Below, piece after piece: positions 19,220 through 63,010 of a stretch of 64,000 nucleotides of DNA; the first letter of the stretch is position 1, and each line of letters opens with the position of its first letter. The translations under genes and the position numbers were made by a program. Source of the stretch: an uncultured Rhodospirillaceae bacterium (GTDB taxonomy: Bacteria > Pseudomonadota > Alphaproteobacteria > MPNO01 > UBA830); assembly GCA_963974055.1 (NCBI GenBank), contig CAXBCP010000001.1:191471-255470 (forward strand), given 5' to 3'. The notes beneath the pieces are model-generated. The model was not told where the DNA came from. It was given only the letters and a program-made list of their open reading frames with translations, and made no database searches.

Positions 19220-20716
19220 CTACGGAACGGCCGTGATGCAGGGCTGTTTATCGTCGAGGAGAAACGGCCCTACCTGTGCGTGTTCGGTGGCGTAGTCGCG
19301 ACCGCAGAAGTCTCGTGCTGCATTGGAGATCGGGGTGCCGGAAGACCGGAGCGCCTTTTCATCCGTAACGGCGAGGTTCCCTTCGACGGGTTCGGCGAAA
19401 ACATCGGATGAAACTTTACGGTTCAGCGCGGCGTCAATATTCGAAACGATGTTGCCGCGTTCCGTATAGTTTCCATCGGTGCGCGCGAGGATGCGCCCGT
19501 CGATCACATTGTTCAGGATCGTGGCCGTGGTTTCGGGATACCGGACATCGATGCCGCGCGTGCCCGTCAGGAGATTGTTGTGGATCAGGGTGTCGGCACT
19601 TTTGTTGAGATATACGCCGACATCGTTCGGGCAATTCATCACGATATTGTTCCGCATAATGCCCCGGATGTGCTCGTCCCGGCATTTTCCGTCGCGGCAG
19701 GACCCTCGATCGGTGCCGCCGCCGCCGAATGAGAATCCGATCCGCGTTCCGCCGCGCTGGCGCCATTCGCAGCGCACCAGGTTGCGTTCGAATATATTAT
19801 CCTCGCCGGCGCCCTTGAAAAATGCGCCGTAGCTGATGCGGTCGCCCTGCGCCTTGGCGAAATCGGCAATGAAATTAGCCTCCACGACCCAGTTGCTGGC
19901 GGCGACGATGTCCAGCATTGTGACCGGGTTCGATGTTTGGCGGGGCCGATCGTTGATAAAAACGTTGTGCGCCACGGTGCCGCCGTCGGGAAACCGGCCG
20001 CTGGCGCCATTTACCTTCAACGACGCGTTGAAATTGGAAATCCAGTTGTTTCGAATGACTGTCGAGTGGGCGTTTCCGACGACATGAAAGGCGTGTTCAC
20101 ACCAGGAATCGCTGGAACATACCCCGTCTATAATCAGGTTCTCGAATATCCAGTTCGCGCCCCGAACGTGAAAGCCTTCCTGCAGATCGAATCGCAGCGT
20201 AACTGTCCCGAAAGCCTTCGCGCGGACGCTGATTGGCGCAGTATCTGTGCCGTTTGCAGCGACATCGATGGATTTTCCCGAAAATGTATACGTGCCCGGG
20301 GCGATGGTGATAACGTCTCCGGGTTCGGCGTTTCCGATTGCCGTAACAACGTCCGTCGCCGAGTTTACGACCGTGCGATTGTGCATGGGACTGTCGTTGG
20401 CGGGATTGGGCCCGGTTTGCGGTCCGATCGCGAAAACCGGCCAGTCCGCCGGACGTGCAGCGGCGGCCCTGCCGGAGACGGGTGCAAAAACATTCCGCGG
20501 ATCCGTTCTCCAGAACAGGTATTCGGCAATATCGAAACCGGGCTTCAGCGATGGATATTTGTTCTTTTGCCAAATGAATTCGGGGTGAAGCAACCGGGCC
20601 CATGAAACATGGAATGCTTCCTGAAATATGTACTGCGTGTAAAGCGCCCCTCCTGAAATTCCCAAAACGAATATCAGGAATACCACCCCTGCCAACCGAC
20701 CAATTTTTCGCCGCAT
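19220..20716 (-). CDS. membrane-anchored right-handed parallel beta-helix (pectin-lyase-fold) protein
   Basis: 498 aa. The N-terminus MRRKIGRLAGVVFLIFVLGISGGALY is a signal anchor. Repeated beta-helix coils follow (NNWISNF, HNVFIND, NNIVMNC, HNNLLTG, NNVIDG). AAGGAAAAG SD precedes ATG 20716. Confidence 0.7.
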   Translation of the reverse strand: MRRKIGRLAGVVFLIFVLGISGGALYTQYIFQEAFHVSWARLLHPEFIWQKNKYPSLKPGFDIAEYLFWRTDPRNVFAPVSGRAAAARPADWPVFAIGPQTGPNPANDSPMHNRTVVNSATDVVTAIGNAEPGDVITIAPGTYTFSGKSIDVAANGTDTAPISVRAKAFGTVTLRFDLQEGFHVRGANWIFENLIIDGVCSSDSWCEHAFHVVGNAHSTVIRNNWISNFNASLKVNGASGRFPDGGTVAHNVFINDRPRQTSNPVTMLDIVAASNWVVEANFIADFAKAQGDRISYGAFFKGAGEDNIFERNLVRCEWRQRGGTRIGFSFGGGGTDRGSCRDGKCRDEHIRGIMRNNIVMNCPNDVGVYLNKSADTLIHNNLLTGTRGIDVRYPETTATILNNVIDGRILARTDGNYTERGNIVSNIDAALNRKVSSDVFAEPVEGNLAVTDEKALRSSGTPISNAARDFCGRDYATEHAQVGPFLLDDKQPCITAVP

Positions 20717-20796
20717 CTTTTCCTTACGCACTCTTTCTGTCGACGGGATCAAAGAGCCTTTCTTTTAAAAAAACGCAGTCCACGCCGACGCTACCA

Positions 20797-20928
20797 TTTA
20801 ACCACCGGAAGGTTCTTCAGAAACCGGATTGTGCATGACCCCTTTGCTATCGTCACAGTTGATACCATACCCGGCCAGCGCCGACAGAATATTAATTGCC
20901 AGCGCCTGATCCGCTTCGGTTATCGGGG
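20797..20928 (-). repeat. orphan copy of the marR 3' end (left direct repeat of the low-GC island)
   Basis: This stretch is about 80% identical at the nucleotide level to 25419-25554. On the minus strand it encodes ...AINILSALAGYGINCDDSKGVMHNPVSEEPSGG*. The intact MarR ends ...AINILSALAGYEINPHDNKSVSCNPASEEISRD*. An in-frame TAA upstream truncates this copy. Confidence 0.75.
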
Positions 20929-21244: not shown

Positions 21245-22870
21245 ATGAAAATTGATTACAACCTGAACGGCGAGGGTGCAAAATCCGTATTTTTTGTAAT
21301 TTGTGCTTTGGTCTTTTTCGCGTTCTTTGAGTTCTACTACAAAATTAATGCGGCTTACCCGTCGGCTCTTCCCCTCGGTTATATCTTGACGGTATTTGCA
21401 GGCATTGTTTTCTCGCGAGTGAAGTATGAAGATTTTTCACCTGCGTTTAAAATCTGCTTCCGGGGGCTTGCTGTCCTTATCGGGCTGTATGCCGCGTTCG
21501 TGTTTCCCGATTATCCGATCGTTGTTGATAAATATGGCGGTACCGAAGGCGCCATCGTGCTTGGCGGCTGGTTTTTGGGCGTCTTATGTTCCCTGCTAAC
21601 GCTATGGCGCCCTTCCTTTCTTCTCGCGAGCGGGTTCTATCTCTGGTGGAGCAAACAGATCGCTGGAACTGTTACCGGATTCCCGTATCACACCCTGCTC
21701 GACATTTTACCTGCAATTGAAATCTCCGCCTTTATGTCGACAGCCTTGTTTTTGCTCGTGCTGATGGGACAGCCTTGGGTTCTCTTGGGCAACAACCGGT
21801 TCGTTTCAGATATTCGCTCGTTCTTTACACAGCGCCGGCGGTATCTCGGCGACTTGATAGTATTCGTGGCAATTTCCATGCAGCTGGCTAATTATTTTAC
21901 GTCGGGCTTAGGTAAAGCCAGCTTGAATGGCGGCGTATTGTCGTGGTCGCTTGAAAATAACCTGGCCGATATTTTCGACGTAGCTGTCATAAACGGACAA
22001 CTTTTCTGGCAGGATTATCCATTCGCCGTTTCGACGTTTTCCGCGATCTTCGACTATCTGAAACACCCGATGTCGATTGGAGTGCTTGTATTTCAGCTTT
22101 TTGCAATCATCGCATTCCGCTCCAGAAATCTTCTGGTGTTTCTATTTCTCGTATTCGATCTGATGCATTTCGGCATTTTTGTTTCGGTCGGTGCGAATTT
22201 CGGACCCTGGTTCATCCTCAACCTGGTAATCTTGGCTGCCGCTGCGAGGCTTGACGATCGTTTCTTTTCGGTAACGGCGGCGAGCGCATCGGCTGCGTTG
22301 GTCATTATATTCGCCTTTGCGTCGCCGCCATTTTGGTCGGCTTGGTTGCGCTGGTACGATACGCCAGCCATCAACACCACGTATTTTGTTGCCGAAGACG
22401 TAACCGGAACGCAAACACGTGTTCCGGTCACCTATTTCGGATTTTACTCCTATCCGATTGCACATATGAGCTTCGGACTTCCGCCTGGGCAGTATCTGCC
22501 GGTGGGAACGAATGGCGGGGTGCTTGACTACAAAATCATGGTCAAGGCGCGGACTTGCGCCTTCACGGACGCCGATATGGTTTCTTCGCAGCACGCCGAG
22601 CGATGGTCGAACAGCGATATTCCCGAATTCATCAGGCATTATCACCGCCAGATGGTAACAAAGTACGGTCCGGGGCAGTCCCGTAATTTCAATATATACC
22701 CCCATCATTTCTGGACGCGTCCCAAGATTTCTAACGCTTTTCGCAGACTTGATAAGCGCAAGATCGTCGCCTATGTAATGAAAACAGATTCCCTCTGCCT
22801 GCGACGTAGTCCTACTGGCGTTGAATCCCGCCTCGTAGCCCACAATGAGATTCGTATAGATGTACGATGA
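21245..22870 (+). CDS. large polytopic integral membrane protein of unknown function (island cargo)
   Basis: Starts at ATG 21245 (MKIDYNLNG...). At least 10 predicted TM helices, then a soluble ~150 aa C-terminal domain. Low GC relative to the flanks. No motif recognised with confidence. Its ORF overlaps the DCC gene by 11 nt. Confidence 0.5.
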   Translation: MKIDYNLNGEGAKSVFFVICALVFFAFFEFYYKINAAYPSALPLGYILTVFAGIVFSRVKYEDFSPAFKICFRGLAVLIGLYAAFVFPDYPIVVDKYGGTEGAIVLGGWFLGVLCSLLTLWRPSFLLASGFYLWWSKQIAGTVTGFPYHTLLDILPAIEISAFMSTALFLLVLMGQPWVLLGNNRFVSDIRSFFTQRRRYLGDLIVFVAISMQLANYFTSGLGKASLNGGVLSWSLENNLADIFDVAVINGQLFWQDYPFAVSTFSAIFDYLKHPMSIGVLVFQLFAIIAFRSRNLLVFLFLVFDLMHFGIFVSVGANFGPWFILNLVILAAAARLDDRFFSVTAASASAALVIIFAFASPPFWSAWLRWYDTPAINTTYFVAEDVTGTQTRVPVTYFGFYSYPIAHMSFGLPPGQYLPVGTNGGVLDYKIMVKARTCAFTDADMVSSQHAERWSNSDIPEFIRHYHRQMVTKYGPGQSRNFNIYPHHFWTRPKISNAFRRLDKRKIVAYVMKTDSLCLRRSPTGVESRLVAHNEIRIDVR

Positions 22871-23282
22871 CGATCAGACCCCGCATAAAGGTATTTTCGT
22901 CGTTTACGATGGTGAATGTCCATTCTGCTCGCGATACGTTGCGATGCTCCGGCTCCGTGAAGCGGCTGGGTATGTTGAACTCATCGATGCTCGGTCGTCT
23001 CACCCGATGGTCGATGAAGTAGTGAGCTACGGCTTCGACCTCGACGATGGCATGGTTGCGAAAATTGGAGACGCCTATTACGCGGGTGCGGATTGCGTCA
23101 ACGTTCTAAGTCTTCTGAGCACCCGAACGAACGGGTTCAATCGCCTGAACTACTGGATGTTCCGGTCCCGGGCATTTTCGCGATTGCTTTACCCTGTTCT
23201 GCGTTTCGGCCGGAACCTCGTTCTGCGTTTGCTCGGCAGATCAAAGATTGGGAAGACATCTAAACCTAATAAGGCCGCCTGA
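22860..23282 (+). CDS. DCC1-like thiol-disulfide oxidoreductase family protein (DUF393)
   Basis: 140 aa. The N-terminal VVYDGECPFCSRYV motif is the defining CxxC signature of the DUF393/DCC family. Confidence 0.7.
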   Translation: MYDDDQTPHKGIFVVYDGECPFCSRYVAMLRLREAAGYVELIDARSSHPMVDEVVSYGFDLDDGMVAKIGDAYYAGADCVNVLSLLSTRTNGFNRLNYWMFRSRAFSRLLYPVLRFGRNLVLRLLGRSKIGKTSKPNKAA

Positions 23283-23378
23283 TCGGCGCGTATGCCCTCA
23301 CGGTCGGGGGAACTCGTTCGCATGAATTAATCATATATTTTGCGTCACAATTATCCGCCATCCGTTAAGAAGACTGCT

Positions 23379-25394
23379 ATGAAAAAATTCCTGGTACCGG
23401 GGTATAATGGATACCGTCCTGACGTAGATGGTCTCCGGGCCGTGGCGGTCCTCTCTGTAATTCTTTTTCATATCGACGAAACTCTCGTTCCAGGCGGATT
23501 TGTGGGAGTAGACATTTTTTTTGTCATCTCCGGATTCCTGATTTCGCGCAACATCATACAAGATATTCAGCAAGACCGGTTCACAATCCTGGACTTTTAC
23601 CGGCGGCGGATTAAGCGCATCGTGCCGCCGATGCTGCTTGTGGTCGCTGCGACCGTTGTCATTGCCCAGATTATTTTGTTGCCGTTGGATGCCGAATGGG
23701 TCGCGGATTCCGCCTTATGGTCACTCGCGTCACTGGCAAACGTCTATTTCTGGCAATTTCAGGATCTCAGTTACTTCGCGGCCGACAGTAAGGAACTTCC
23801 ACTTCTTCATTTGTGGTCGCTTGGTGTCGAAGAACAGTTTTATTTCATATGGCCGCTTCTGTTGCTCATGATCGGTGCGCTCCGTCGTCCGCGGCTTCTG
23901 ATCGTATGCATCGCCGCCATTATAGTTGGTTCGTTTGTCCTGGGTGAATTGATCTTCGAGCGATCTCCCATGTTTGCCTATTACATGCTGCCGTCGCGGG
24001 CCGGAGAATTGCTGTTTGGCGCTCTGGTGGCAGTTGCGATAATCAAGAATGTCGACCGATATATTTCAAAAATTGCTGCGTTCACGATAGCCTGGTCCGG
24101 TGTGGCACTTCTGATATGGAGTTTGTTCGCGCTATCGGAAATGGACCGGTTTCCTGGGTTTAATGCGATTCCGCCCACTCTTGGGACCGCCCTTATTATT
24201 TTTGCCGGGCATTGCCAGCGCGGCATTCTTTTCCAAGCCTTGTCGGTGCGGCCTGTAGTCTGGGTTGGGCTAGTGTCCTACTCGGCGTACCTTTGGCATT
24301 GGCCGCTTCTCGCTTTCGTTAGATATGGATTTGGCGAAGTCACGCCAATTTTTGGCTTGCTTGCCTTTCTTGCGACTTTTTTGCTCGCATGGATCACCTA
24401 TCGATATGTTGAACAGCCTGCGCGGCGCATAAACGCGGCGTTTGGACGGGTTCTTACTACTCAATATTTGATACCCGCCGGCGCTCTCGGCATGGTGTGT
24501 ATGATGGCAATGTACATTGACGGATACGGCTTCCGCAATCTGATCGGGGACTACAGGCAACGACTTGAAGACAGCAAGCGACTGACGCCTTCCACGTTTA
24601 CGTTCGATTTCGTCTGCCAAAAACAACGGATTGGCGCAAAAGATCTTCTGAACGGTAGTTGCGTCGTTGGGGCGCCATCGTCCGACCCGGCAAAGTTTAT
24701 AATGTGGGGCGATTCTAATTCCAGTCATTATGTCGGCATGGTGCGCCAGTTCGCCGAGCGGGGTGGGTTTAAAGTCAGGAACGTTGCTGTCGGCGCCTGT
24801 CCGCCGATCGATGACGACCCGGAACCATTCGTAAAGTCTAAACGCCTTGCGGACTGCAGGACGTCGCTTCGCGTTATTCGGTCGGTGATCGACAAATATC
24901 CGGCGGTCATAATGGCCGCGTCCTATCCGAGTTATCGCAGTAACCCGGAGTTTCTTGAATCGTTTATGAAAACTGCGGCTCGTCTGGCACGATCGGGTAA
25001 ACCAGTGATTGTTCTCGGAAAGGTTCCGTTACTTCACCGCTTCGATCATCTGTGCCAGCAAAAATCTATCAGTTTTCCGATGCTTGTTTGTGCAAACACC
25101 AGCAATGCAATCGATCCCGACGTCGCAAGGATTAATTCCAAGCTTAAGGAATTTGCCGGCCGAACGGACGTTGTCGAGTATTTCGATGCAAATGATTTGA
25201 TTTGTCCCCGCGGTATATGTTCTGCATACGCTTCAGACGGTAAACAAATTTATCACGACGGTGACCATATCACGATGAGCGCTTCTCAGGACGTCGGGCG
25301 CAAAGTGTTTGAAACCCAAGGTCTTCCAGCTCCGTTTGGCCAAGCACTGGATTATCTGTCACGTGCGACACGCCCCGCCGTCGAGGGGGGCTGA
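23379..25394 (+). CDS. acyltransferase family 3 O-acyltransferase with C-terminal SGNH/GDSL hydrolase-like domain (OatA-like)
   Basis: 671 aa. An N-terminal ~350 aa 10-TM acyltransferase_3 domain (RPDVDGLRAVAVLSVILFH...FFVISGFLISR) is followed by a periplasmic domain with a MWGDSNSSHYV SGNH-type block. Confidence 0.8.
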   Translation: MKKFLVPGYNGYRPDVDGLRAVAVLSVILFHIDETLVPGGFVGVDIFFVISGFLISRNIIQDIQQDRFTILDFYRRRIKRIVPPMLLVVAATVVIAQIILLPLDAEWVADSALWSLASLANVYFWQFQDLSYFAADSKELPLLHLWSLGVEEQFYFIWPLLLLMIGALRRPRLLIVCIAAIIVGSFVLGELIFERSPMFAYYMLPSRAGELLFGALVAVAIIKNVDRYISKIAAFTIAWSGVALLIWSLFALSEMDRFPGFNAIPPTLGTALIIFAGHCQRGILFQALSVRPVVWVGLVSYSAYLWHWPLLAFVRYGFGEVTPIFGLLAFLATFLLAWITYRYVEQPARRINAAFGRVLTTQYLIPAGALGMVCMMAMYIDGYGFRNLIGDYRQRLEDSKRLTPSTFTFDFVCQKQRIGAKDLLNGSCVVGAPSSDPAKFIMWGDSNSSHYVGMVRQFAERGGFKVRNVAVGACPPIDDDPEPFVKSKRLADCRTSLRVIRSVIDKYPAVIMAASYPSYRSNPEFLESFMKTAARLARSGKPVIVLGKVPLLHRFDHLCQQKSISFPMLVCANTSNAIDPDVARINSKLKEFAGRTDVVEYFDANDLICPRGICSAYASDGKQIYHDGDHITMSASQDVGRKVFETQGLPAPFGQALDYLSRATRPAVEGG

Positions 25395-25418
25395 GCGGTA
25401 ACTCCTCGGACTGGCGTT

Positions 25419-25554
25419 ACCAATTAATCGCGGGAAATTTCTTCAGAAGCCGGATTGCACGAGACACTTTTGTTATCGTGAGGGTTGATTTCATATCCGG
25501 CCAGTGCCGACAGAATATTAATTGCTGTGGCGCGGTCCGCTTCCGGTACCGGGG
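25419..25554 (-). repeat. right direct repeat of the island (native 3' end of marR)
   Basis: Partner of 20797-20928; see that entry. Continuous with the intact MarR CDS. Confidence 0.75.
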
Positions 25555-28736: not shown

Positions 28737-29324
28737 TTACTCCCCGCCGGTTTGATATTCGACCAGATAACTGGCGTAATACTTTTGAGGGCCGGGAGCC
28801 TGCCATCTGAAGCCCTTTGCTGTCGGTAGGTAATAAACCGGCATCCATTTGAAGTTATTGGTCGAGCATTTATATTTCGTGCGGTACCATTTCTTGGCCC
28901 AGACTTTAAACGCATTTCTTGGGTGCACTTCACCGTTCACCCATACGAGTTTACGAACACTGCAAAAGAATCGAAGGCCAATCCACACTTCTTCCTTGGC
29001 CTCGAAATTTGCTTTCAGAAAACTGTGGGTTTCAATGTCCTTGACTACTGCCAGGCGCCCCCGGACCCCCTTAAATATTCGCGTGCGCGCATATTTATTA
29101 GCTGTTGACCAATTCGGCGGCATTGGCAGATCGACCCGCAGTTCAAAGTAGCTCTTGGTGTGGGGATTATAAATCGGCTTAACTGGAACGGCCGAAGAAC
29201 CGGTCCTGTGATACGCCTCGCCGGTTTCGGCGGCGAGGGCCATCCTAGCTGTCGATGAGAGAAGCAAATATGCGACTGCTACGATGACGATCTTGAGTAG
29301 GGGCGCTCGAATAGGACTGAACAT
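28737..29324 (-). CDS. secreted C-type lectin-like domain protein (low-GC orphan gene)
   Basis: 195 aa from MFSPIRAPLLKIVIVAVAYLLLSSTARMALAAE, a signal peptide. CTLD-like blocks: WSTANKY...GRLAVVKDIETHSFL and EVWIGLRFF...WVNGE. The gene is conspicuously AT-rich compared with its neighbours. Confidence 0.5.
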   Translation of the reverse strand: MFSPIRAPLLKIVIVAVAYLLLSSTARMALAAETGEAYHRTGSSAVPVKPIYNPHTKSYFELRVDLPMPPNWSTANKYARTRIFKGVRGRLAVVKDIETHSFLKANFEAKEEVWIGLRFFCSVRKLVWVNGEVHPRNAFKVWAKKWYRTKYKCSTNNFKWMPVYYLPTAKGFRWQAPGPQKYYASYLVEYQTGGE

Positions 29325-29442
29325 CAGTTCTTCTGCGGTTAGCACGATGTCTCTAAGACAGAGTATATAACGCCACCCGAAATATGTTAAGAACGGAGTA
29401 GGAGTGTATATTGCAGTTTGATTTTGTCGGGACGCCCAATTT

Positions 29443-30423
29443 ATGAAAACGCTTGTCACCGGAGCCGCGGGATTTATCGGTTACCATACCGCAACCCGTT
29501 TGCTCGACCGGGGCGACGAGGTCGTTGGTATCGATATTGTGAACGACTATTACAGCGTGGCGCTTAAAAACGCCCGGCTGGAACGGCTGAAACAGAGAGA
29601 CGGGTTTACGTTCCACAAGCTCGATCTTTCCGACCGGCAGGCCTTCGACGAAACTCGTTCGGCGATCCGTGGCGTCACCCGTGCTGTGCATCTCGCGGCG
29701 CAGGCGGGCGTCCGGCATTCGATCGAGCGGCCGTTCGACTATGTCGATGCGAACCTGGTCGCCCATATGACCGTTCTGGAATTATGCCGTCATCAGCCGG
29801 ATTTCGAACATCTGGTTTATGCCAGTTCAAGTTCGGTCTATGGCGGGAACACCAAGCTTCCATTTGCCGTCGAAGACCGCGTCGATGCGCCGGTATCGCT
29901 CTATGCGGCGACCAAGCTGGCCAATGAACATATGAGTTACAGTTATAGCCACCTTTACGGTCTTGCGCAGACGGGCCTGCGGTTTTTCACCGTCTACGGA
30001 CCTTGGGGGCGGCCGGATATGGCGCTGTATATATTCGCGGATGCCATCCTCAAAGGGCGGCCTATCGAGGTTTTCAATCATGGCGACATGAAGCGCGATT
30101 TTACCTATGTCGACGATATTGTGACGGGGGTCGTGGCGGCGCACGACAATCCGCCCTCCGCCGACCCGGGGCCGCCCCACAGGGTCTACAATATCGGAAA
30201 CAACCAATCGGAACCGTTGCTCCGCCTCATCAGCGTGCTCGAAGAGTGCCTCGGGAAAAAAGCGGAAACGATCATGAAGCCGATGCAACTGGGCGATGTG
30301 AAAGAGAGCTTCGCAGATATCGAAGCGATCCGGCGCGATCTCGGATTCGAGCCGACAACCCCGATCGATGTCGGCGTGCCGAAATTCGTCGAATGGCTCA
30401 GATCCTATAACGGGAATTACTGA
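29443..30423 (+). CDS. NAD-dependent epimerase/dehydratase (UDP-glucuronate 4-epimerase-like)
   Basis: Starts MKTLVTGAAGFIGYH, a Rossmann fold. Catalytic YAATK is present. The overall pattern matches the UDP-GlcA/UDP-GalA 4-epimerase (Cap1J/LpsL) subfamily. Confidence 0.85.
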   Translation: MKTLVTGAAGFIGYHTATRLLDRGDEVVGIDIVNDYYSVALKNARLERLKQRDGFTFHKLDLSDRQAFDETRSAIRGVTRAVHLAAQAGVRHSIERPFDYVDANLVAHMTVLELCRHQPDFEHLVYASSSSVYGGNTKLPFAVEDRVDAPVSLYAATKLANEHMSYSYSHLYGLAQTGLRFFTVYGPWGRPDMALYIFADAILKGRPIEVFNHGDMKRDFTYVDDIVTGVVAAHDNPPSADPGPPHRVYNIGNNQSEPLLRLISVLEECLGKKAETIMKPMQLGDVKESFADIEAIRRDLGFEPTTPIDVGVPKFVEWLRSYNGNY

Positions 30424-38985: not shown

Positions 38986-40683
38986 ATGAAAACTTTGCCT
39001 GATCTGTGGCGTACCGTAATGCCGTTCGCGGCAATGCTGTTTGCCGTCCTTGCCGTCATTTTTTTCGGATCAGGTACCTCGGCCGATATGAGGGTGAAGC
39101 TCAAGGATGGGCGCGTCCTGAATTTGCCGGTCACGCCCGACCAGATCGATTCCGTGACCTTCGGTTCCGGTCCAGCCGGGCCGGTCCCGGCAGAATCGGG
39201 CGCAATGCGCCGGAAACAGCCGGTCGGCCGGGCGGCGGCTCAGATCAAGGCAGACGAAAAAAGTATCCGGACATCGCGGGATGCCGAAAAGCGGGCACTG
39301 GACGCGGCGAAGGCAGCCGGCGCGGCAGCCGATACCGCCCGCGCCGCCGCCGCCCTGGCGGAACGGGAAGCGGCGGCCGCCACAGCGGCGCGGAAATCGG
39401 CGGAAGAGGCAGCGCGCGCCGGCCCCGCTGCAACCCCCGGCCCGGCATCGGCCTTGAATTCGTCGCCGCCGGTTCGCCGCAGTACCGGTAAGCCGGTCAG
39501 GGCGGCGGGGCGTGTCCTGAATATCGGCCCCGGAAAAAAGTACAAACGCCCCAGCGACGCGGCCGGCGCGGCGCAGGACGGAGACACGGTTGAAATCGCC
39601 GCCGGCACCTATAAGGGAGATGTCGCGCAATGGACCGCCAGCAACCTGACGATCCGCGGCGTCGGCGGCCGCGTGCACCTGGATGCGGATGGCCGGTGTC
39701 AGGCGGGCAAGGCAATATGGGTTATCAGCGGCAATGACACCGCAGTCGACAATATCGAGTTTTCGAATTGCCGTGTTCCCGACCGGACCGGTGCCGGCCT
39801 TCTCTTTGAAGGCCGCAATCTGGCGGTGCGCAACAGTTTCTTTCACGACAACGATATGGGGCTTGTGACCGGCAACCGGCAGAAAGGCGACGTGCTGGTC
39901 GAAGGGTCCGAATTCGCCCGCAACATGGCGCCGGATAAAAATGGGCTCGGCCACAATATCTATATCGGCCGCGAGCGCAGCTTTATCCTGCGCAACAGCT
40001 ATGTACACGGAGCGGTCCGGGGCCATGACATCAAATCGCGCGCCCGCGAAAACCGGATATTGTATAACCGCATCGTCGATGGGCCGGCCGGCGCGGCGGG
40101 TTACCTGGTCGATATTGCCGAAGGCGGCCGCGCCTGGCTGGTGGGTAATGTGTTTCACAAGAGCGCCCGGGCGGGCAACCGTCCCGTGGTCAGCTTCGCC
40201 GCGGAGCGGCGGGCCGCCGCCGACCGGATCGCGCTGATCAACAATACGCTCGCCAACGAATTCGACGGCGGCGTCTTTATACAGAACAGGGGTGGCGCGG
40301 CGGCCATACTGATCAACAATATTCTGGCCGGTCCCGTCGATCCCGCAACGGGCCCGGCCGAACTCCGTAACAATCTGATCGTCCGCAACAATCCGATGAT
40401 CCGTCCGCCAACGGCATCGGGCGGCCAGCCGGTAAAGGCATCGGCCGGGAAAGGCCCGCTGTCGGGGAATTTCATCGCGCCCGAGGCGGGTTTCACGAAC
40501 CCCGGTCAAATGGACTTTTCTCTGTCCCGCCGCTCGCCGGCGCGCAATACCGGTGCGGAACCGGGGCTGGTAAATCGGTGGCCGGCGCGCCCGTCCGCGC
40601 ACTATCTTCATCCGCGCCGCCAGGCGCCGCGGCCGAATGACGGCAGGATCGATATCGGCGCCTATGAATATTCGGCCCCGTAG
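38986..40683 (+). CDS. secreted/membrane-anchored right-handed parallel beta-helix protein with Ala-rich coiled linker
   Basis: AGGAGA SD before the ATG. An N-terminal TM/signal (MPFAAMLFAVLAVIFFGSG) is followed by an Ala/Glu-rich ~100 aa segment, then beta-helix coils (NIEFSNC, RNSFFHDN, RNSYVHG, NNTLANE, NNILAG, RNNLIVRNN). The terminal IDIGAYEY motif is common in this fold. Confidence 0.7.
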   Translation: MKTLPDLWRTVMPFAAMLFAVLAVIFFGSGTSADMRVKLKDGRVLNLPVTPDQIDSVTFGSGPAGPVPAESGAMRRKQPVGRAAAQIKADEKSIRTSRDAEKRALDAAKAAGAAADTARAAAALAEREAAAATAARKSAEEAARAGPAATPGPASALNSSPPVRRSTGKPVRAAGRVLNIGPGKKYKRPSDAAGAAQDGDTVEIAAGTYKGDVAQWTASNLTIRGVGGRVHLDADGRCQAGKAIWVISGNDTAVDNIEFSNCRVPDRTGAGLLFEGRNLAVRNSFFHDNDMGLVTGNRQKGDVLVEGSEFARNMAPDKNGLGHNIYIGRERSFILRNSYVHGAVRGHDIKSRARENRILYNRIVDGPAGAAGYLVDIAEGGRAWLVGNVFHKSARAGNRPVVSFAAERRAAADRIALINNTLANEFDGGVFIQNRGGAAAILINNILAGPVDPATGPAELRNNLIVRNNPMIRPPTASGGQPVKASAGKGPLSGNFIAPEAGFTNPGQMDFSLSRRSPARNTGAEPGLVNRWPARPSAHYLHPRRQAPRPNDGRIDIGAYEYSAP

Positions 40684-40686
40684 AAC

Positions 40687-41532
40687 CTAACTGCCGAGAG
40701 TGTCGACCCAGTCGATCGTCAGCGTCGCAACCTCGTCGCGCCAGGCGCGGCGGGAAAACGTGTGGTCGGCGGCAGGCATGTCGCGCCGGGTCAGCCGGTG
40801 GGCGGCGACGAGCCTGCGCCACCGCGGCGAGGCCTTTACGGCGTCGTCGAATTCCCGCGCCGTCAGATCGTTTCCGCTCATGATCAGCAGGACCGGCTGC
40901 GCGAATTTTTCGAGCCCGTCCGCCATCCGGTCCGCCAGGGGGTTTCTGGCGGCGGTATCGGCGCCGCTTTCCGCATGTGCGGCTTTCACTGTGCCCATCA
41001 ACGAACCCGCCGAGCCCGTCAGGTCGAACCGTCCGCGAAGAATCTTGCCCCATAGCGCCCGGCTGAAAATCCGGCTGAGGTAATAGTGGCGAAGCTGGGT
41101 TTTGGCATACCCGCTTTCGCTGCGGACCCAGGGATTCAGCAGCACCGATCCTGCGATGCGACGATCGGCATGGGCGTAGAACAGGATCGCGGACGCGGCA
41201 TCGCACAGCCCCCACAATACGATTTCCTGTATCTCCGGGAGCGCGGCGGTAAAAGCATCCGCCGCGGCGCGAATGTCGTCGTCGATGTTTTCGAATCCGG
41301 CGAACGTGCCGCCGCTGTCGCCGAGCCCGCGATAGTCAAACCGCATTGCCGCAATGCCGTTCTCCGCCAGGGCGCGTGCGAGCAGCAGGAACTGGCGATG
41401 GCTGCCGGTTCGGTATTGCGGGCCGCCGACGACGATCAGCACACCGCGTTTGGCGGGCCGGCCGGGCCGGTGCACGATACCGACAAGGTCGGCATCGCGG
41501 CATTTGAAGGAAACCGGTATTTCTTCGGTCAT
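40687..41532 (-). CDS. alpha/beta hydrolase (exosortase A system-associated hydrolase type)
   Basis: 281 aa from MTEEIPVSFKC. Nucleophile elbow GLCDAAS; HTF near the C-terminus. Its start overlaps the stop of the upstream hydrolase by 4 nt. Confidence 0.7.
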   Translation of the reverse strand: MTEEIPVSFKCRDADLVGIVHRPGRPAKRGVLIVVGGPQYRTGSHRQFLLLARALAENGIAAMRFDYRGLGDSGGTFAGFENIDDDIRAAADAFTAALPEIQEIVLWGLCDAASAILFYAHADRRIAGSVLLNPWVRSESGYAKTQLRHYYLSRIFSRALWGKILRGRFDLTGSAGSLMGTVKAAHAESGADTAARNPLADRMADGLEKFAQPVLLIMSGNDLTAREFDDAVKASPRWRRLVAAHRLTRRDMPAADHTFSRRAWRDEVATLTIDWVDTLGS

Positions 41533-42344
41533 AGCTGCTGCAACGCCTGAAGCGTCCGGTCGATCATCTCCGGCGCCGTGGTGGTTTCCTGAATCGTCCA
41601 GAACGGTTCGCCGGGGCACAGCCGGATATCGATACGGATACCGCTTTCGGTCCAGGCGTCGATGATACGCTGGCTTGCCGGCATGGGCCCGCGTTCCGCG
41701 TCGCCGGTCTCTATCCAGATGACGGTGCTGCCCGGCCGGGGCGTCATATCCGCCAGCCGCAACACATCCAGATCCGCTGCCAGATCGGGATGAATTTCAT
41801 ACCCGGCGACCTCGACGCTTTCGCCTGCCTGCCACATTGCGCGCAGGTCCCTGGTGGTTTCTTTCGCACCGCTGCCCGCCGGACCGCCCGTCAGGCCGGC
41901 GGCCATACGGATGCGCAGGAACTGGTTCAGCATTGTTTCGCCATTGCCCACCGGCTGCCACAGGATCAGCGGTTGGGCCCGGTTGAGGCTCGCGGCGAGT
42001 AGCGCGCCTGCCCGCAGCCCGAAGGAAACCGGCATCTGTCCGGTTTTCTCGGCCAGCCAGAGACCCGCTGAACGGGCGTCTTCCTGCCAGGTTTGCCAGC
42101 GGGCGTCGTAGAAATCGCCGCTGCTGTCGCCGGTGCCCGTCAGGTCGAGCGCCAGGACGCCGTAGCCTGCACCCGCCAGAGCACGCCCGGTCAGATAGGT
42201 CATCCGCCGCGACATGTTCATTTCTTCGGCAAAGGGCGGCAGCAACAGGACGCTGCCCCGGGCCTCATTCTGAGCGGGGTGGTACAGCGCGAACAGCCGT
42301 CGGTCGCCGATCTCGATAAACAGGGGTTGGGGCGCTGCGGTCAT
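41529..42344 (-). CDS. alpha/beta hydrolase (exosortase A system-associated hydrolase type), second paralog
   Basis: 271 aa: LLLPPFAEEMNMSRR...GTGDSSGDF... Minimal alpha/beta hydrolase fold. Co-oriented downstream of the ACP gene. Confidence 0.7.
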   Translation of the reverse strand: MTAAPQPLFIEIGDRRLFALYHPAQNEARGSVLLLPPFAEEMNMSRRMTYLTGRALAGAGYGVLALDLTGTGDSSGDFYDARWQTWQEDARSAGLWLAEKTGQMPVSFGLRAGALLAASLNRAQPLILWQPVGNGETMLNQFLRIRMAAGLTGGPAGSGAKETTRDLRAMWQAGESVEVAGYEIHPDLAADLDVLRLADMTPRPGSTVIWIETGDAERGPMPASQRIIDAWTESGIRIDIRLCPGEPFWTIQETTTAPEMIDRTLQALQQL

Positions 42345-42378: not shown

Positions 42379-42630
42379 TCACGCGGCCAGCTTCTGGTCC
42401 ACGAATTCGGTCAGGCTGCCGACGGATTCAAATGATTCGGCCGAAATTTCGTCGTCTTCGACGAATATATCGAATTGTTCTTCCAGCGCCGTGATCACCG
42501 TGACGACGGCCATCGAGTCGAGTTCGGCTATACTGCCGAGCAGCGGCGTGGATGCCGTGAAATTGTCGACCCTGTCTCCGAGTTGAAGGGTTTCCCCCAA
42601 CACCTGCTTCACGACGTCGATAGTTGCCAT
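42379..42630 (-). CDS. acyl carrier protein
   Basis: 83 aa. The phosphopantetheine attachment motif is LGSIAELDSMAVV (DSM variant of DSL). Four-helix ACP-like composition. Confidence 0.75.
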   Translation of the reverse strand: MATIDVVKQVLGETLQLGDRVDNFTASTPLLGSIAELDSMAVVTVITALEEQFDIFVEDDEISAESFESVGSLTEFVDQKLAA

Positions 42631-42753
42631 TACATTTGCCCCGTACGCATAAATTCATCATTTCAATCAGGTCTTTATATTCCACGCGCGGCGTCTGGAC
42701 AAAGACCAATCGTGGTATCCTTACCGTTATCGGAGCGATCATCGGGAACTTTC

Positions 42754-43461
42754 ATGCGCGTCATTCGTAAATTCAGGGGGTTGGCCGCCGAGTTCGGCTT
42801 TGGCAATGCAGTGCTCTACGTCTTCGGGCTGGCGCTGCGGGGGATATGCCCCGGTGCATCCGTTTATCGCTATTACATCGTTGCGCAGCCGGTGCCGGAC
42901 AAAAACCTGCTGCCGGCCCGGCGCGGCAAGGCGATTGCGGTCCGCGAGCTGAAACCCGGCGATCCGGCGTTTTCGGCCCTGCCGCTCGATCAGGACGTTC
43001 TGGCCTACCGCTTTGCCCAGAACGTGGTCTGTCTCGGCGCGTTCCAGAACGAAAAGCCGATCGGCTGTCTGTGGATGTGTTTCGATTCCTATGACGAAGA
43101 CGAAATCAGGTGCACTTTCCGCCTCGCTCCCGTCGGGCGTGTCTCCTGGGATTTCGACGTTTATCTGCACCCCGACGCGCGGCTCGGTTTTGCCTTTCTG
43201 CGGCTATGGGACGAAGCGAACGCGATTTTGCGCGACCGGGGTATCGCCTGGTCGCTCAGCCGTATTTCCGGCTTCAACCCGGGGTCGATGGCGTCCCATG
43301 CCCGCATGGGGGCGGTTCGCGTGGGAAGTCTGATTGCGCTGAAAGGCCCGAAAAGGCAGCTCGTCTGGAGCACTTATTCGCCCGTTTTCAGCTTCCGGCG
43401 GCTCGACGGAAACCTGCCTTCCTATACCGTTTCTCCGCCCGGGCATGCGGAGACGCGTTGA
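42754..43461 (+). CDS. GNAT-fold acyltransferase-like protein (candidate N-acyl amino acid synthase type)
   Basis: 235 aa from MRVIRKF. Size and position match the small acyltransferase found with ACP and ligase genes in exosortase loci. No strong motif was seen, so the assignment is tentative. Confidence 0.45.
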   Translation: MRVIRKFRGLAAEFGFGNAVLYVFGLALRGICPGASVYRYYIVAQPVPDKNLLPARRGKAIAVRELKPGDPAFSALPLDQDVLAYRFAQNVVCLGAFQNEKPIGCLWMCFDSYDEDEIRCTFRLAPVGRVSWDFDVYLHPDARLGFAFLRLWDEANAILRDRGIAWSLSRISGFNPGSMASHARMGAVRVGSLIALKGPKRQLVWSTYSPVFSFRRLDGNLPSYTVSPPGHAETR

Positions 43462-45091: not shown

Positions 45092-46353
45092 GCGACGCTC
45101 CCGAAGCCAGGAAACGCGAAAAACCGAAACCGGTCACGGCGCCGATAGAACAGTTCCCGGTCGAGAACGGGGACCTTGTCATCGGCGGCGTGCCGTTATC
45201 CCGTCTGGCCCGTCAGATCGGGGCGACGCCGTTTTTCGCCTATGACCGCGATCTGATCTCGCAACGGATCGCCCATCTGCGCGAAATCCTGCCCGATGGC
45301 GTGAACCTGAATTTCGCGATGAAGGCGAACCCCATGCCGGCCGTCGTGCAGCATGCCGCGGGACTGGTCGACGGAATTGACGTCGCCTCCGCCCTCGAAA
45401 TGAACGTGGCGCTCGACACCACCATGCCGCGCCATCGCATCAGTTTCGCCGGGCCCGGCAAGACCGAGGCGGAGATCGCGCGCGCCGTAGCGGCGGGGAT
45501 CGTGCTCAATCTTGAATCCGCGAACGAAATGGAAATCGTTGCCCGCCACGCCGCGGAACAGGGTGTCGTGGCGCCGGTCGCCGTTCGGGTGAATCCGGAT
45601 TTCGAACTCAAGACGTCCGGCATGAGGATGAGCGGCGGGCCGAAGCAGTTCGGTGTCGATGCCGAATGCGTGCCCGACATGCTCCGGCGCATGGGCGAAC
45701 TGCCGACCCTGGAATTTCATGGCTTTCATATATTCAGCGGTTCGCAGAATCTGCGGGCGGAAGCGCTGATCGAAGCCCAGACGAACACGGTCGATCTTGC
45801 AATCGCGCTGGCGGCCGTTGCGCCCGGACCCGTAAGACACCTCAATATCGGCGGCGGGTTCGGCATCCCGTATTTCCCCGGCGACACGCCGCTCGACCTC
45901 ACGCCGGTTGCCGAGAATCTCGACGGATTGATGGCGCGGATCAAAACCGAGCTGGGCGATGTCCGCGTCGTTATCGAACTCGGACGCTATATCGTCGGCG
46001 AGGCCGGCATCTATGTCAGCCGGATCGTCGACCGCAAGGAATCGCGCGGAAAGGTATTCCTGATCACCGATGGCGGGCTGCATCATCAGCTCGCTGCATC
46101 GGGCAATTTCGGGCAGGTGATCCGGAAGAACTATCCCGTCGCGATCGGCAATCGCATGGACGAGCCGGCGACCGAAACCGCGGACATCGTCGGCTGTTTG
46201 TGCACGCCGCTCGATCTTCTCGGCGACAAGGTGGACATACCGGCGGCCGCGGTCGGCGACCTTGTGGTGCTGTTTCAGTCGGGCGCCTATGGGCTGACGG
46301 CCAGTCCCACGGCTTTTCTCAGCCATCCGGTGCCGCTCGAGGTGCTGGTTTGA
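45088..46353 (+). CDS. PLP-dependent decarboxylase, Orn/DAP/Arg decarboxylase fold-III family
   Basis: GTG start overlaps the ligase stop (GTGA). Motifs as in diaminopimelate decarboxylase: NFAMKANP with the PLP-lysine, GGGFGIPY, and the C-terminal CTPLD. Confidence 0.85.
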   Translation: MSDAPEARKREKPKPVTAPIEQFPVENGDLVIGGVPLSRLARQIGATPFFAYDRDLISQRIAHLREILPDGVNLNFAMKANPMPAVVQHAAGLVDGIDVASALEMNVALDTTMPRHRISFAGPGKTEAEIARAVAAGIVLNLESANEMEIVARHAAEQGVVAPVAVRVNPDFELKTSGMRMSGGPKQFGVDAECVPDMLRRMGELPTLEFHGFHIFSGSQNLRAEALIEAQTNTVDLAIALAAVAPGPVRHLNIGGGFGIPYFPGDTPLDLTPVAENLDGLMARIKTELGDVRVVIELGRYIVGEAGIYVSRIVDRKESRGKVFLITDGGLHHQLAASGNFGQVIRKNYPVAIGNRMDEPATETADIVGCLCTPLDLLGDKVDIPAAAVGDLVVLFQSGAYGLTASPTAFLSHPVPLEVLV

Positions 46354-48233: not shown

Positions 48234-48299
48234 TCGTTTGCTTTTTGGGGCTATTATGCAGCCCGACATTTGGTGAGTTACGTTTGGTCGCGACAAAAA

Positions 48300-48935
48300 A
48301 TGGTGGGCGAAATGTTGTGGAATAGGTTTGGCGGAGCGCTGATGGTGCTGTGCGTGGCGGCTCTGGCAGGCTGTTCCTCGCTTGAGGAACTTCCGACGGC
48401 AAAGCCCGTTTCCGAGACGGAAGAGCTCGAGACCGAATACCGGATCGGCTCCGACGATTCGCTTCAGATATTCGTCTGGCGGAACCCGGAACTGTCGAAC
48501 AGCGTTGCGGTGCGTCCCGACGGCAAGATAACTATTCCGTTGATCGAGGACCTGCCTGCGACCGGCAAGACGCCGACCGAGCTGGCCCGCGATATCGAGA
48601 AACAGCTCAGCGTTTATATTCAGGACCCCATCGTCACCGTCATTATGCGGGGATTTGTCGGTCTGCCGAAGGACAGGGTCCGGGTCGTCGGCGAAGCGGC
48701 GCAGCCCCAGGCGCTGCCATACCGGTCGACGATGACGTTGCTCGATATCATGATCTCCGTCGGCGGGCTTACCGATTTTGCCGATGGCAACCGCGCCACC
48801 ATATCGCGGCTGGTCGACGAGGACTTGAAGCAGTTCCGGGTGCGGATCGACGACCTGCTTCGCGCCGGCGACATGTCGGCGAATGTCCGGATCATGCCGG
48901 GCGACGTTATCGTTATCCCCGAAGCGTGGTTCTGA
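48300..48935 (+). CDS. polysaccharide export outer-membrane lipoprotein (Wza/EpsE-like, PEP-CTERM-locus type)
   Basis: Lipoprotein signal ...VLCVAALAGC. Poly_export motif YRIGSDDSLQIFVW...PDGKITIPLI. A SLBB domain follows. Start could be ATG 48300 or 48312. Confidence 0.8.
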   Translation: MVGEMLWNRFGGALMVLCVAALAGCSSLEELPTAKPVSETEELETEYRIGSDDSLQIFVWRNPELSNSVAVRPDGKITIPLIEDLPATGKTPTELARDIEKQLSVYIQDPIVTVIMRGFVGLPKDRVRVVGEAAQPQALPYRSTMTLLDIMISVGGLTDFADGNRATISRLVDEDLKQFRVRIDDLLRAGDMSANVRIMPGDVIVIPEAWF

Positions 48936-62967: not shown

Positions 62968-63010
62968 AGCATTGCGGGGCTGCCGGCCAATCGTCCAGTT
63001 CGAACCGGTA

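Follow-up and report, generated by a model that had tools for sequence, protein, structure and literature searches.

Two beta-helix proteins inside and beside an XrtA/PEP-CTERM exopolysaccharide locus as putative membrane-anchored glycan-processing proteins

The analysed DNA, referred to below as the window, is a stretch of 64,000 nucleotides from an uncultured Rhodospirillaceae bacterium. According to a family-library scan of its ORFs, the window carries a complete XrtA/PEP-CTERM exopolysaccharide (EPS) locus around one of two genes encoding beta-helix proteins, designated here ORF1 and ORF2. The main features are as follows:

19220–20716, minus strand: ORF1, 498 aa, putatively membrane-anchored Pel9A-like beta-helix protein of a family with a CEHAFH motif
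20789–20928, minus strand: remnant of a marR 3' end with some 43 codons and the stop, direct repeat of 25415–25554
29443–62112, no strand assigned: XrtA/PEP-CTERM exopolysaccharide locus
38986–40683, plus strand: ORF2, 565-aa beta-helix protein within the XrtA locus
40687–41619, minus strand: hydr1_PEP, exosortase A-associated alpha/beta hydrolase (hydrolase 1, TIGR03100)
41529–42344, minus strand: hydr2_PEP, exosortase A-associated alpha/beta hydrolase (hydrolase 2, TIGR03101)

The first part of the XrtA locus contains genes for an epimerase, PEP_O_lig_1, glycosyltransferases, Wzx, WecB, ORF2, hydr1/2, an acyl-CoA ligase, and a decarboxylase, in this order; these are followed by genes for a chain-length determinant, tyrosine kinase, outer-membrane protein, ATPase, deacetylase, FemAB, stp1, XrtA-EpsI, and amidotransferase. 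The preliminary description of this DNA had placed one beta-helix protein inside the polysaccharide region and the other on its flank, and this arrangement was confirmed. ORF2 is located between wecB and hydr1_PEP and is convergent to hydr1/hydr2, its stop codon ending 3 nt short of that of hydr1. ORF1 lies about 10 kb to the left of the first XrtA marker, PEP_O_lig_1 at 30466, and is neighboured by a TRAP transporter on the side away from the locus. Comparison of the 541-aa membrane protein beside ORF1 with the 576-aa protein found beside ORF2 orthologues revealed no homology. No UDP-sugar dehydrogenase was detected among the window ORFs scanned against the family libraries; beta-elimination on a uronic-acid substrate can therefore not be taken as established. 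The presence of WecB suggests sugars of the ManNAc type.

The start of ORF1 was assigned to the ATG at 20716, which has AAGGAAAAG directly upstream; a database protein (P0001) identical to the 498-aa product supports this choice. The 140-nt repeat at 20789–20928 is situated 73 nt upstream of this ATG. ORF1 was previously said to abut the left repeat of an island; the adjacency is real, but the repeat does not delimit an island. Its partner is located at 25415–25554 and hence not beyond the polysaccharide region; the two copies are 77% identical along the 140 nt (mean column identity 83% in a 191-nt alignment including the repeat), and the pair is a duplicated marR 3' end that brackets only a 4.6 kb insertion. 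The repeat was accordingly rejected as an island boundary.

Within the two proteins, the following segments were distinguished:

20639–20695, minus strand: ORF1 hydrophobic segment, residues 8–26, LAGVVFLIFVLGISGGALY, after MRRKIGR (hydropathy; model helix at 2–31)
19457–20377, minus strand: ORF1 right-handed beta-helix, residues 114–420 (model and family alignment)
39013–39069, plus strand: ORF2 hydrophobic anchor or signal peptide, residues 10–28, TVMPFAAMLFAVLAVIFFG, followed by GTSADM
39220–39417, plus strand: ORF2 Ala-rich helix (stalk or spacer), residues 79–144, predicted as a single long helix
39514–40395, plus strand: ORF2 right-handed beta-helix, residues 177–470 (model and family alignment)
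40471–40680, plus strand: ORF2 C-terminal cap, residues 496–565, ending in IDIGAYEY

Each protein possesses a sole hydrophobic segment near its N-terminus, with a Kyte-Doolittle 19-residue mean of 2.23 in ORF1 and 2.33 in ORF2, in line with the N-terminal anchors reported for both. Residues 8–26 of ORF1 are interpreted as a signal anchor that leaves the N-terminus on the cytoplasmic side, and in ORF2 a possible signal-peptidase site (between TSA and DM) occurs just after residues 10–28. The Ala-rich spacer and the IDIGAYEY tail recorded earlier for ORF2 were likewise recovered. The former is predicted to form one 66-residue helix containing 28 Ala (A, E, K, and R together make up 71%), flanked in the model by disordered linkers at residues 58–77 and 146–166; the latter closes the C-terminal cap, which matches the NCBIfam "choice-of-anchor Q" domain below its threshold, and the protein ends in GRIDIGAYEYSAP (...IDIGAYEYSAP). 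An equivalent cap with the consensus DIGPxQY is present in ORF1, which terminates in DDKQPCITAVP. Neither C-terminus carries the PEP-CTERM signal of XrtA substrates, as no PEP motif, hydrophobic helix, or basic tail was found. In addition to the N-terminal hydrophobic segments, an extracytoplasmic location is supported by eight Cys residues in ORF1, each invariant or at least 90% conserved across the family and together putatively forming four disulfides, and by MYXO-CTERM or T9SS sorting domains in relatives of ORF2.

According to the AlphaFold2 models, both proteins have a right-handed parallel beta-helix of Pel9A topology (mean pLDDT 93.9 for ORF1 and 86.9 for ORF2, >95 within the beta-helix), and the originally proposed fold is also indicated by the Pfam scan, which returned Beta_helix for ORF2 (E 1.8e-10) and the N-terminus of Chondroitinase_B, plus a weak NosD match, for ORF1. 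The repeated N-N-x-I/V-x-N coils ascribed to both sequences are evident in ORF1, where the strict motif [NG]N.[ILVF].[NDGTSA] occurs five times versus 0.75 expected (0 of 2000 shuffles reach five); the coils of ORF2 are looser than claimed, with only two strict occurrences, a number reached by a fraction of 0.115 of shuffles.

Assignment to a curated family was not achieved. The match of ORF1 to Chondroitinas_B scored 26.1 bits (cut-off 24) and covered just profile positions 1–111 of 426, and ORF2 gave no match to this profile in the Pfam scan. Besides this marginal N-terminal match, no hit of either ORF passes the threshold of a curated family; PF22842 (Pel9A-like_beta_helix) is given for ORF1 by the precomputed annotation of the source and not by the local Pfam scan, and no curated NCBIfam model covers either family. 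PDB searches with single ORF sequences yielded one marginal match (alginate lyase 8bwk, E 0.023) or none. The weak NosD match raises the question of whether both proteins are NosD-like beta-helix proteins handling metals or cofactors in the periplasm. This function is very improbable and was rejected: scores were about 20 bits for TIGR04247 (cut-off 300) and 21.6 for PF05048 (cut-off 23.6), NosD ranks well under the lyases, and neither nosZ nor nosFY lies beside the genes in any locus examined.

Comparison at the level of families and structures points to a fold like that of polysaccharide lyases. In the Foldseek search with ORF2, all 13 matches at E ≤ 1e-3 were PL9, PL6, or PL31 lyases, and the top structural neighbours of both proteins are enzymes. 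According to hhalign, the ORF1 and ORF2 families are related to each other (probability 93.8%, E 1.7e-7, 331 columns), and the PL9 alignment matches the ORF1 family with a probability of 98.6% (E 4.8e-16, 134 columns only) and the ORF2 family with 93.4% (E 2.5e-7, 155 columns). Both PL9 matches cover the cap plus those coils that precede the catalytic region. Sequence profiles thus show a remote relationship of the two families to each other and to the N-terminal part of PL9. The N-terminal cap (V.V..eL..Ai..A.PGD.I.L..G.Y) is also common to PL6 lyases such as chondroitinase B and AlyGC (profile E 1e-10 to 1e-7) and to PL31 alginate lyase; beyond the cap, the match is not significant (7.7 bits). 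CAZy-family sequence similarity of both ORFs does not extend past the cap and the initial coils at the N-terminus.

The fold topology is that of the pectate lyase Pel9A/PelL (PL9; 1ru4; PF22842), in which four Ca2+-binding Asp residues and the Lys273 base lie in the motifs ADGF, SDDGFD, and NGFKLGGN. These motifs were recovered from an alignment of 1ru4 (residues 29–309), which was obtained by querying the PDB with a PL9 homologue from a clostridial plasmid; PL9 homologues of clostridia conserve the motifs. The residues were mapped in sequence register by coil counting, a register that is ambiguous by one coil for ORF1. In this register, PL9 D209, D233, D234, D237, and K273 correspond to D269, Y296/G297, F300/K301, and S329 of ORF1 and to N324, H347, N/D348, S351, and a non-Lys position of ORF2. 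Of the Ca2+ ligands, ORF1 would retain D269 only (Asp in 72 and Asn in 18 of 90 family members). At the position of K273, coil counting places IGFS329FGGGG in ORF1, with an invariant Ser, and the invariant K301 one coil before it; the ORF2 sequence there reads GY373LVD376I, without Lys, and K350 precedes it by one coil. An alternative hhalign register, which skips one PL9 coil and sets K301 on K273, was put aside in favour of coil counting, although the ambiguity stays. A coil deletion is disfavoured because of the similarity in PB2/PB3 (HNTFENTAF versus HSTVIRNNWI, and NTVINSDAYRN versus GTVAHNVFIND) and that between IGFSFGGGG and NGFKLGGN. Judged by this mapping, the PL9 Ca2+ ligands Asp209, Asp233, Asp234, and Asp237 and the Lys273 base are not conserved in either family.

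The catalytic set of PL6 appears to be matched only in part. The stretch NCPND365VGVYLNK372S...RGIDVR392 of ORF1 resembles the catalytic coil of AlyGC, in which we take K220 to be the Lys base, R241 the Arg acid (cross-checked via the R241A chain 5gkq), and an Asn/Glu/Glu triad the Ca2+ site. Within this segment, whose alignment is itself not significant, K372 aligns with K220 (Lys in 58 and Arg in 26 of 90 members), R392 is one residue off register from R241, and D365 is placed opposite the first Glu ligand, with an invariant Gly at the position of the second Glu.

It was also considered that both proteins are polymer-modifying enzymes, such as AlgG/AlgE-type C5-epimerases altering the composition of the EPS in the periplasm. 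Such an activity is quite improbable: direct reading of both translations revealed no DPH(D/E) motif, which is characteristic of these mannuronan epimerases, AlgE4 ranks far below the lyases in Foldseek (E about 1e-2 versus about 1e-6), no alginate gene context surrounds ORF1 or ORF2, and nothing was found to indicate that the polymer contains uronic acids.

Each family has its own set of invariant polar residues. In the central coils of ORF1, these are E207, H208, H211, K234, T261, S295, K301, N312, and S329, and at least 80% conservation was noted for D269, D285, K288, Y296, E310, and R325. The ORF2 family is characterized by invariant E306, H323, R352, and N388 and near-invariant N324, Y326, H341, H347, K350, N361, R362, D365, and Y373. 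Since conserved Asp, Lys, Arg, and His residues sit on equivalent coils in both families, an enzymatic role for both proteins stays plausible. Judged by the refuting condition in the preliminary description, membership of a known CAZy family fails, given that the PL9 set is not conserved, that of AlgG is absent, and that of PL6 is partial; the polar residues on equivalent coils are nevertheless conserved. The candidate catalytic residues are E207, H208, H211, K234, D269, D285, K288, Y296, K301, R325, and S329 of ORF1 and H323, N324, Y326, H341, H347, K350, R352, R362, and D365 of ORF2. The ORF2 of this species has T268 and L273 at near-invariant positions occupied in the family by Asn and Arg; these two substitutions (N268T and R273L) may have changed or abolished its activity.

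Beta-helix proteins do not always act as enzymes: AlgG has a structural role in the alginate complex, and PfbA is a beta-helix surface adhesin. By analogy, ORF1 and ORF2 could be non-catalytic glycan-binding or scaffold proteins guiding or protecting the periplasmic polymer, or surface adhesins. We consider this unlikely, as the invariant or near-invariant charged and His residues on consecutive central coils (E207, H208, H211, K234, and K301 in ORF1; H323, H347, K350, and R352 in ORF2) are more typical of active sites, and the closest structural neighbours named above also speak for catalysis. Both proteins are therefore discussed below as plausible periplasmic glycan-processing enzymes outside the assigned families.

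More evidence was obtained from the gene neighbourhoods. In ORF2 orthologues with 46–56% identity, the order wecB, ORF2, hydr1, hydr2, ligase, decarboxylase is preserved. Among loci flanked by 5 kb or more of sequence, XrtA markers were detected in 21 of 65 genome loci of the ORF2 family and in 20 of 39 metagenome loci of the ORF1 family, and hydr1 or hydr2 in 16 of these 39; the XrtA co-occurrence figures are raw counts, given without a formal background rate. The XrtA-linked loci of the ORF2 family span Proteobacteria, Acidobacteriota, KSB1, and Fibrobacteria. In the ORF1 family, a total of seven loci have a convergent hydr1 at a distance below 300 bp, and clustering of the 26 XrtA-associated loci of ORF1 type (25 from the scan plus L091) gave 16 clusters at 70% identity and 11 at 60%. 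The slot of ORF2, convergent to hydr1/hydr2, is filled by relatives of ORF1 in many other XrtA loci. Methylobacillus sp. MM3 (locus L036) is one organism with a homologue in an XrtA setting. The neighbourhood shared by the beta-helix genes is that of the XrtA accessory families (TIGR03097-03101, TIGR03006-03019, TIGR03087, and TIGR03108), and co-occurrence is especially frequent with hydr1 and hydr2, in many lineages. Both families are recurrent accessory genes of XrtA/PEP-CTERM EPS loci in diverged lineages, and the synteny with hydr1/hydr2 is the main new result of this work.

For ORF1, the evidence is divided. Its closest named orthologues (Denitrobaculum and others, 42–54% identity) are found among trp, tRNA-synthetase, and lipid A genes, and the closest full-length orthologues lie near trpFBA, LysR/M48 peptidase, DUF885, and xanthine-dehydrogenase genes. 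Together with the TRAP transporter on one side and the distance of about 10 kb to the locus core on the other, including the 4.6 kb insertion, this would fit a stand-alone periplasmic beta-helix enzyme acting on a cell-envelope or nutrient glycan and unrelated to the EPS locus. Independence of ORF1 from the locus is nevertheless somewhat unlikely, since about half of the sampled family members with enough flank are in XrtA loci, often adjoining hydr1, and the GC3 of ORF1 (0.68) is close to that of the variable EPS genes, unlike that of the TRAP genes (0.76–0.78). Because the two families often adjoin hydr1/hydr2 in XrtA loci, ORF1 and ORF2 probably process the exopolysaccharide. The preliminary description had proposed lyases, epimerases, or depolymerases that tailor EPS; the connection with EPS is upheld by the XrtA synteny of both families, and the catalytic residues of known families were not found.

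The preferred reading, to which we assign a probability of roughly 0.5, is that ORF1 and ORF2 are membrane-anchored, periplasm-facing beta-helix proteins that bind the nascent EPS and cleave or trim it. The periplasmic topology, the glycan cleavage, and the stalk function in ORF2 are what we infer from the features described above. Both proteins would be anchored in the inner membrane, or ORF2 may alternatively be cleaved and released; the nascent polymer would be bound along the beta-helix groove before cleavage or trimming. In ORF2, the helix of some 66 residues, with a length of roughly 10 nm, would act as a stalk that holds the catalytic domain off the inner membrane. The role would be of the lyase or depolymerase type, as for RbmB, AlgL, or PslG, serving in chain-length control or in the clearing of mis-exported polymer.

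A precedent is RbmB, a periplasmic beta-helix lyase with a Lys base that is encoded in the Vibrio polysaccharide (VPS) locus (PMC12993940). This lyase of Vibrio cholerae (9ozd; catalytic K227/E253) has no detectable sequence homology to ORF1 or ORF2, and its Wzy-type locus lacks an exosortase, in contrast to the XrtA locus described here. Pel9A, in turn, is secreted and belongs to a pectin-degradation regulon, whereas ORF1 and ORF2 are putatively membrane-anchored and their families occur in EPS-biosynthesis loci. A more far-reaching reading is advanced tentatively: the two families may be an interchangeable and so far unrecognised periplasmic component of XrtA systems, partnered with the hydr1/hydr2/ACP/acyl-CoA-ligase/decarboxylase module. 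Their catalytic sets would lie outside CAZy (CEHxxH, K, D, K in the ORF1 family versus H, N, Y, H, K, R in the ORF2 family) and would found one or two new lyase or depolymerase families specific for exosortase-dependent EPS.

The words lyase and hydrolase are absent from the founding description of the XrtA system (PMC1569441), and none of the six occurrences of "helix" inspected there concerns a beta-helix protein. Literature searches for PEP-CTERM loci with beta-helix or pectate-lyase genes gave no relevant result. For this window, the two proteins represent an expected type of component and no surprise. XrtA/PEP-CTERM systems drive the formation of flocs and biofilms in many bacteria of the environment. 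A recurrent beta-helix protein with a lyase-like fold beside hydr1/hydr2 is a concrete candidate for a trimming or releasing enzyme of the XrtA polymer. If active, such proteins would provide tools to analyse or disperse XrtA matrices and could define new CAZy families.

The two frames earlier proposed to encode anchored beta-helix proteins were both found to be real in an ORF scan:

19220-20716, minus strand: ORF1, ATG start, 498 aa
38986-40683, plus strand: ORF2, 565 aa

The sequence directly 5′ of the ORF1 ATG is AAGGAAAAG; a TTG lying 36 nt further upstream is an alternative start that would lengthen the protein by 12 residues, and the 498-aa database record P0001 is identical to ORF1. Each protein contains exactly one strongly hydrophobic segment, which is N-terminal and bears out the anchors claimed in the preliminary description (residues 8-26 of ORF1, after MRRKIGR; residues 10-28 of ORF2, followed by a possible signal-peptidase site between TSA and DM). 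All eight cysteines of ORF1 are conserved, consistent with periplasmic disulfides. ORF2 ends in GRIDIGAYEYSAP, and the C-termini of both proteins lack a PEP-CTERM tail, indicating that they are not exosortase substrates. The repeated coil motif described for both proteins is clear in ORF1 (five strict matches versus 0.75 expected; 0 of 2000 shuffles reach five) and weak in ORF2 (two matches; the fraction of shuffles reaching two is 0.115). The beta-helix of ORF2 stands despite this, given a match to Pfam Beta_helix (E 1.8e-10) and the structure prediction. The Ala-rich spacer noted in ORF2 was also recovered: residues 79-144 (28/66 Ala) are predicted to form a single long helix with disordered linkers on either side. 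This helix of about 66 residues would keep the catalytic domain at a distance from the inner membrane.

AlphaFold2 models built with the family alignments had mean pLDDT values of 93.9 (ORF1) and 86.9 (ORF2); in the ORF2 model, pLDDT was >95 throughout the helix domain and low in the linkers only. Structural neighbours include the PL31 alginate lyase 6kfn, AlgE-type epimerase/lyase structures 8ja4 and 2pyg, RbmB (9ozd), PL6 lyases, GH110 and GH87 enzymes, and phage depolymerases. For ORF2, all 13 Foldseek matches at E ≤ 1e-3 were PL9, PL6 or PL31 lyases, and AlgE4 appeared at E of about 1e-2. The ORF1 and ORF2 families aligned with each other in hhalign (93.8%, E 1.7e-7) over 331 columns spanning the whole helix and are remote homologues. 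Against a small PL9 alignment, the ORF1 family (98.6%, E 4.8e-16) and the ORF2 family (93.4%, E 2.5e-7) matched in the N-terminal cap and first coils, and PDB profile searches likewise showed similarity to PL6, PL9 and PL31 chains in that region alone.

Residues 29-309 of the PL9 reference Pel9A were retrieved through a PDB query with a PL9 homologue from a clostridial plasmid. The Ca2+ ligands of Pel9A, D209, D233, D234 and D237, and its base K273 match the recovered sequence exactly at a 25-residue offset (motifs ADGF, SDDGFD and NGFKLGGN); the motifs are kept in clostridial PL9 homologues. Equivalent positions were assigned from sequence, by counting coils from the well-aligned first three.

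Positions of ORF1 and ORF2 corresponding to PL9 catalytic residues
PL9 ADGF (D209): ORF1 TMLD269IV; ORF2 GH323N324IY326
PL9 SDDGFD (D233, D234, D237): ORF1 SY296GAFFK301; ORF2 GH347(N/D)348IK350SR352
PL9 NGFKLGGN (K273): ORF1 IGFS329FGGGG; ORF2 GY373LVD376I

ORF1 keeps at most one PL9 Asp residue, D269 (D in 72/90 members, N in 18/90), and in the coil-counting register the position of the Lys base holds an invariant Ser in ORF1 and a residue other than Lys in ORF2. For ORF1, hhalign offers a one-coil shift that would place K301 on K273; this register appears less likely. The ORF1 stretch ND365VGVYLNK372S...RGIDVR392 resembles the catalytic coil of the PL6 lyase AlyGC, but this segment falls short of significance, residue 372 is K or R across members, and an invariant Gly occupies one of the Glu-ligand positions. 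Both ORFs lack the C5-epimerase motif DPH(D/E); an epimerase or other polymer-modifying role for both proteins is improbable. Membership in PL9 and in AlgG/AlgE fails on the catalytic signature, and membership in PL9, PL6 or AlgG/AlgE is not established. In both families the central coils are densely populated with invariant polar residues, which argues for a putative active site of its own in each family. A non-catalytic scaffold or binding role for both proteins would leave these invariant residues to be explained; it is considered unlikely.

ORF2 of this species has T268 and L273, where relatives have N (99/101) and R (100/101), so that 39787-39804 (residues 268-273) encodes TGAGLL versus the family NGAGIR. 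Four population variants share TGAGLL, and the change is therefore real. The comparison points to loss, in this lineage only, of a near-invariant Arg on the conserved groove ladder; T268 and L273 may alter ORF2 activity.

According to NCBIfam scans, the window contains a complete XrtA/PEP-CTERM exopolysaccharide locus, each gene listed here scoring above the curated cut-off of its family.

Genes of the XrtA/PEP-CTERM locus
start 30466: PEP_O_lig_1
40687-42344: hydr1_PEP and hydr2_PEP (hydrolases 1 and 2, exosortase A-associated; hydr1 and hydr2 below)
start 43520: acyl-CoA ligase
start 45088: decarboxylase
start 49429: chain-length determinant
start 51067: tyrosine kinase
start 52933: outer-membrane protein
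start 54440: ATPase
start 55372: deacetylase
start 56247: FemAB
start 57289: stp1
start 58496: XrtA-EpsI
start 60178: amidotransferase

ORF2 is flanked by wecB and by hydr1, which is convergent to it with 3 nt between the stop codons. ORF1 sits at the left edge of a lower-GC stretch at about 20-38 kb (48-58% GC versus 60-65% in the flanks), and a TAXI-TRAP transporter adjoins it on the side away from this stretch. A UDP-sugar dehydrogenase was not found among the scanned ORFs of the window, which leaves a uronic-acid substrate unproven.

Two asparagine-synthase-type amidotransferases are encoded: the canonical XrtA/PEP-CTERM one (60178-62112, plus strand; 1068 bits), followed by a trypsin-like protease gene (62113-62967), and a diverged paralogue under the cut-off (about 46350-48233, plus strand; 254 bits), which immediately follows the decarboxylase, an arrangement also seen in related loci. 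Three ORFs of 281-333 aa within or bordering the locus (42475-43461, plus; 48225-49070, minus; 62906-63907, plus) have no Pfam match; the first two have no NCBIfam match either, and for the third the scan covered Pfam alone. A 240-aa ORF (28737-29459, minus strand) in the variable portion of the EPS region has a Pfam Lectin_C (C-type lectin) match barely over the cut-off (E 4e-5).

Near ORF1, a 140-nt direct repeat (20789-20928 and 25415-25554) is a duplicated marR 3′ end of 43 codons plus stop, with translations containing AINILSALAGYGIN and AINILSALAGYEIN. Between the copies lies a three-gene module (21245-25394; GC 50-53%) that looks like an insertion beside marR. It encodes a 541-aa multi-pass membrane protein (21245-22870, plus strand, divergent from ORF1; no Pfam or NCBIfam match), a DCC1-like thiol-disulfide oxidoreductase, whose gene follows that of the membrane protein and overlaps it by 11 nt, and an AT3+SGNH O-acyltransferase. 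The 541-aa protein was compared with a 576-aa protein encoded beside ORF2 orthologues and is not homologous to it. Elsewhere, the two direct-repeat pairs 11981-12212/12910-13141 and 12416-12538/13348-13470 (72% identity; copies separated by about 930 nt in each pair) suggest that genes upstream of the studied region were duplicated in tandem.

Long-form ORF2 orthologues (46-56% identity) keep the position: Epimerase_2, one gene, ORF2-like gene, hydr1, hydr2, ACP, ligase, decarboxylase. A search of species-representative genomes gave 379 relatives and 79 retained loci, 65 of them flanked by 5 kb or more on one side; XrtA-system markers (at least 35% identity) occurred in 21 of these 65, a raw fraction without a background rate. 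The marked loci belong to Alpha-, Beta-, Gamma- and Deltaproteobacteria, Acidobacteriota, KSB1, Fibrobacteria and others. Stalkless short forms (about 380 aa) are found in unrelated contexts as well.

In the metagenome scan for the ORF1 family, XrtA markers were present in 20 of the 39 loci whose flank extended 5 kb or more (again a raw fraction without a background rate) and hydr1 or hydr2 in 16. Seven loci in total have a convergent hydr1 less than 300 bp downstream of the ORF1-like gene, the slot occupied by ORF2 in the window. The 26 associated loci (25 from the scan plus L091) group into 16 clusters at an identity of 70% and into 11 at 60%, and hence are not a single lineage sampled repeatedly. 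One homologue each from Halioglobus and Hyphomicrobiales lies in an XrtA locus and a glycan cluster, respectively; the closest full-length orthologues of ORF1 lie amid housekeeping genes. The XrtA association of ORF1 is strong at the family level, but its link to the locus in the window is weaker, the local basis being proximity alone. That ORF1 is an unrelated periplasmic enzyme would fit its closest orthologues and sits poorly with the family-level association; it is rather doubtful. Members of both families occur together in some loci (L090, L140, L155 and L169; ORF2-like genes 32-35% identical to ORF2), so the families may not be functionally redundant. Of these, L140 and L155 contain hydr1 and hydr2 as well. 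L090 belongs to a glycan-biosynthesis cluster that includes an stp1-like glycosyltransferase, and its two beta-helix genes are immediate neighbours.

The evidence best supports ORF1 and ORF2 as lyase-fold proteins that face the periplasm and are linked to EPS production of the XrtA type. Most likely they would cut or trim the polymer, on the model of locus-encoded enzymes such as RbmB (PMC12993940). The earlier observation is borne out, and its reading as lyases, epimerases or depolymerases of EPS is supported in part: the proteins have a lyase-like fold and an XrtA tie, and they lack the PL9 and AlgG/AlgE catalytic signatures. A beta-helix component of XrtA loci has no record in NCBIfam or in the literature searched. 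ORF1 and ORF2 are beta-helix glycan-processing proteins encoded in EPS loci, a kind already known; the alternation of two related beta-helix families in a fixed slot of XrtA loci is apparently a detail unrecorded so far.
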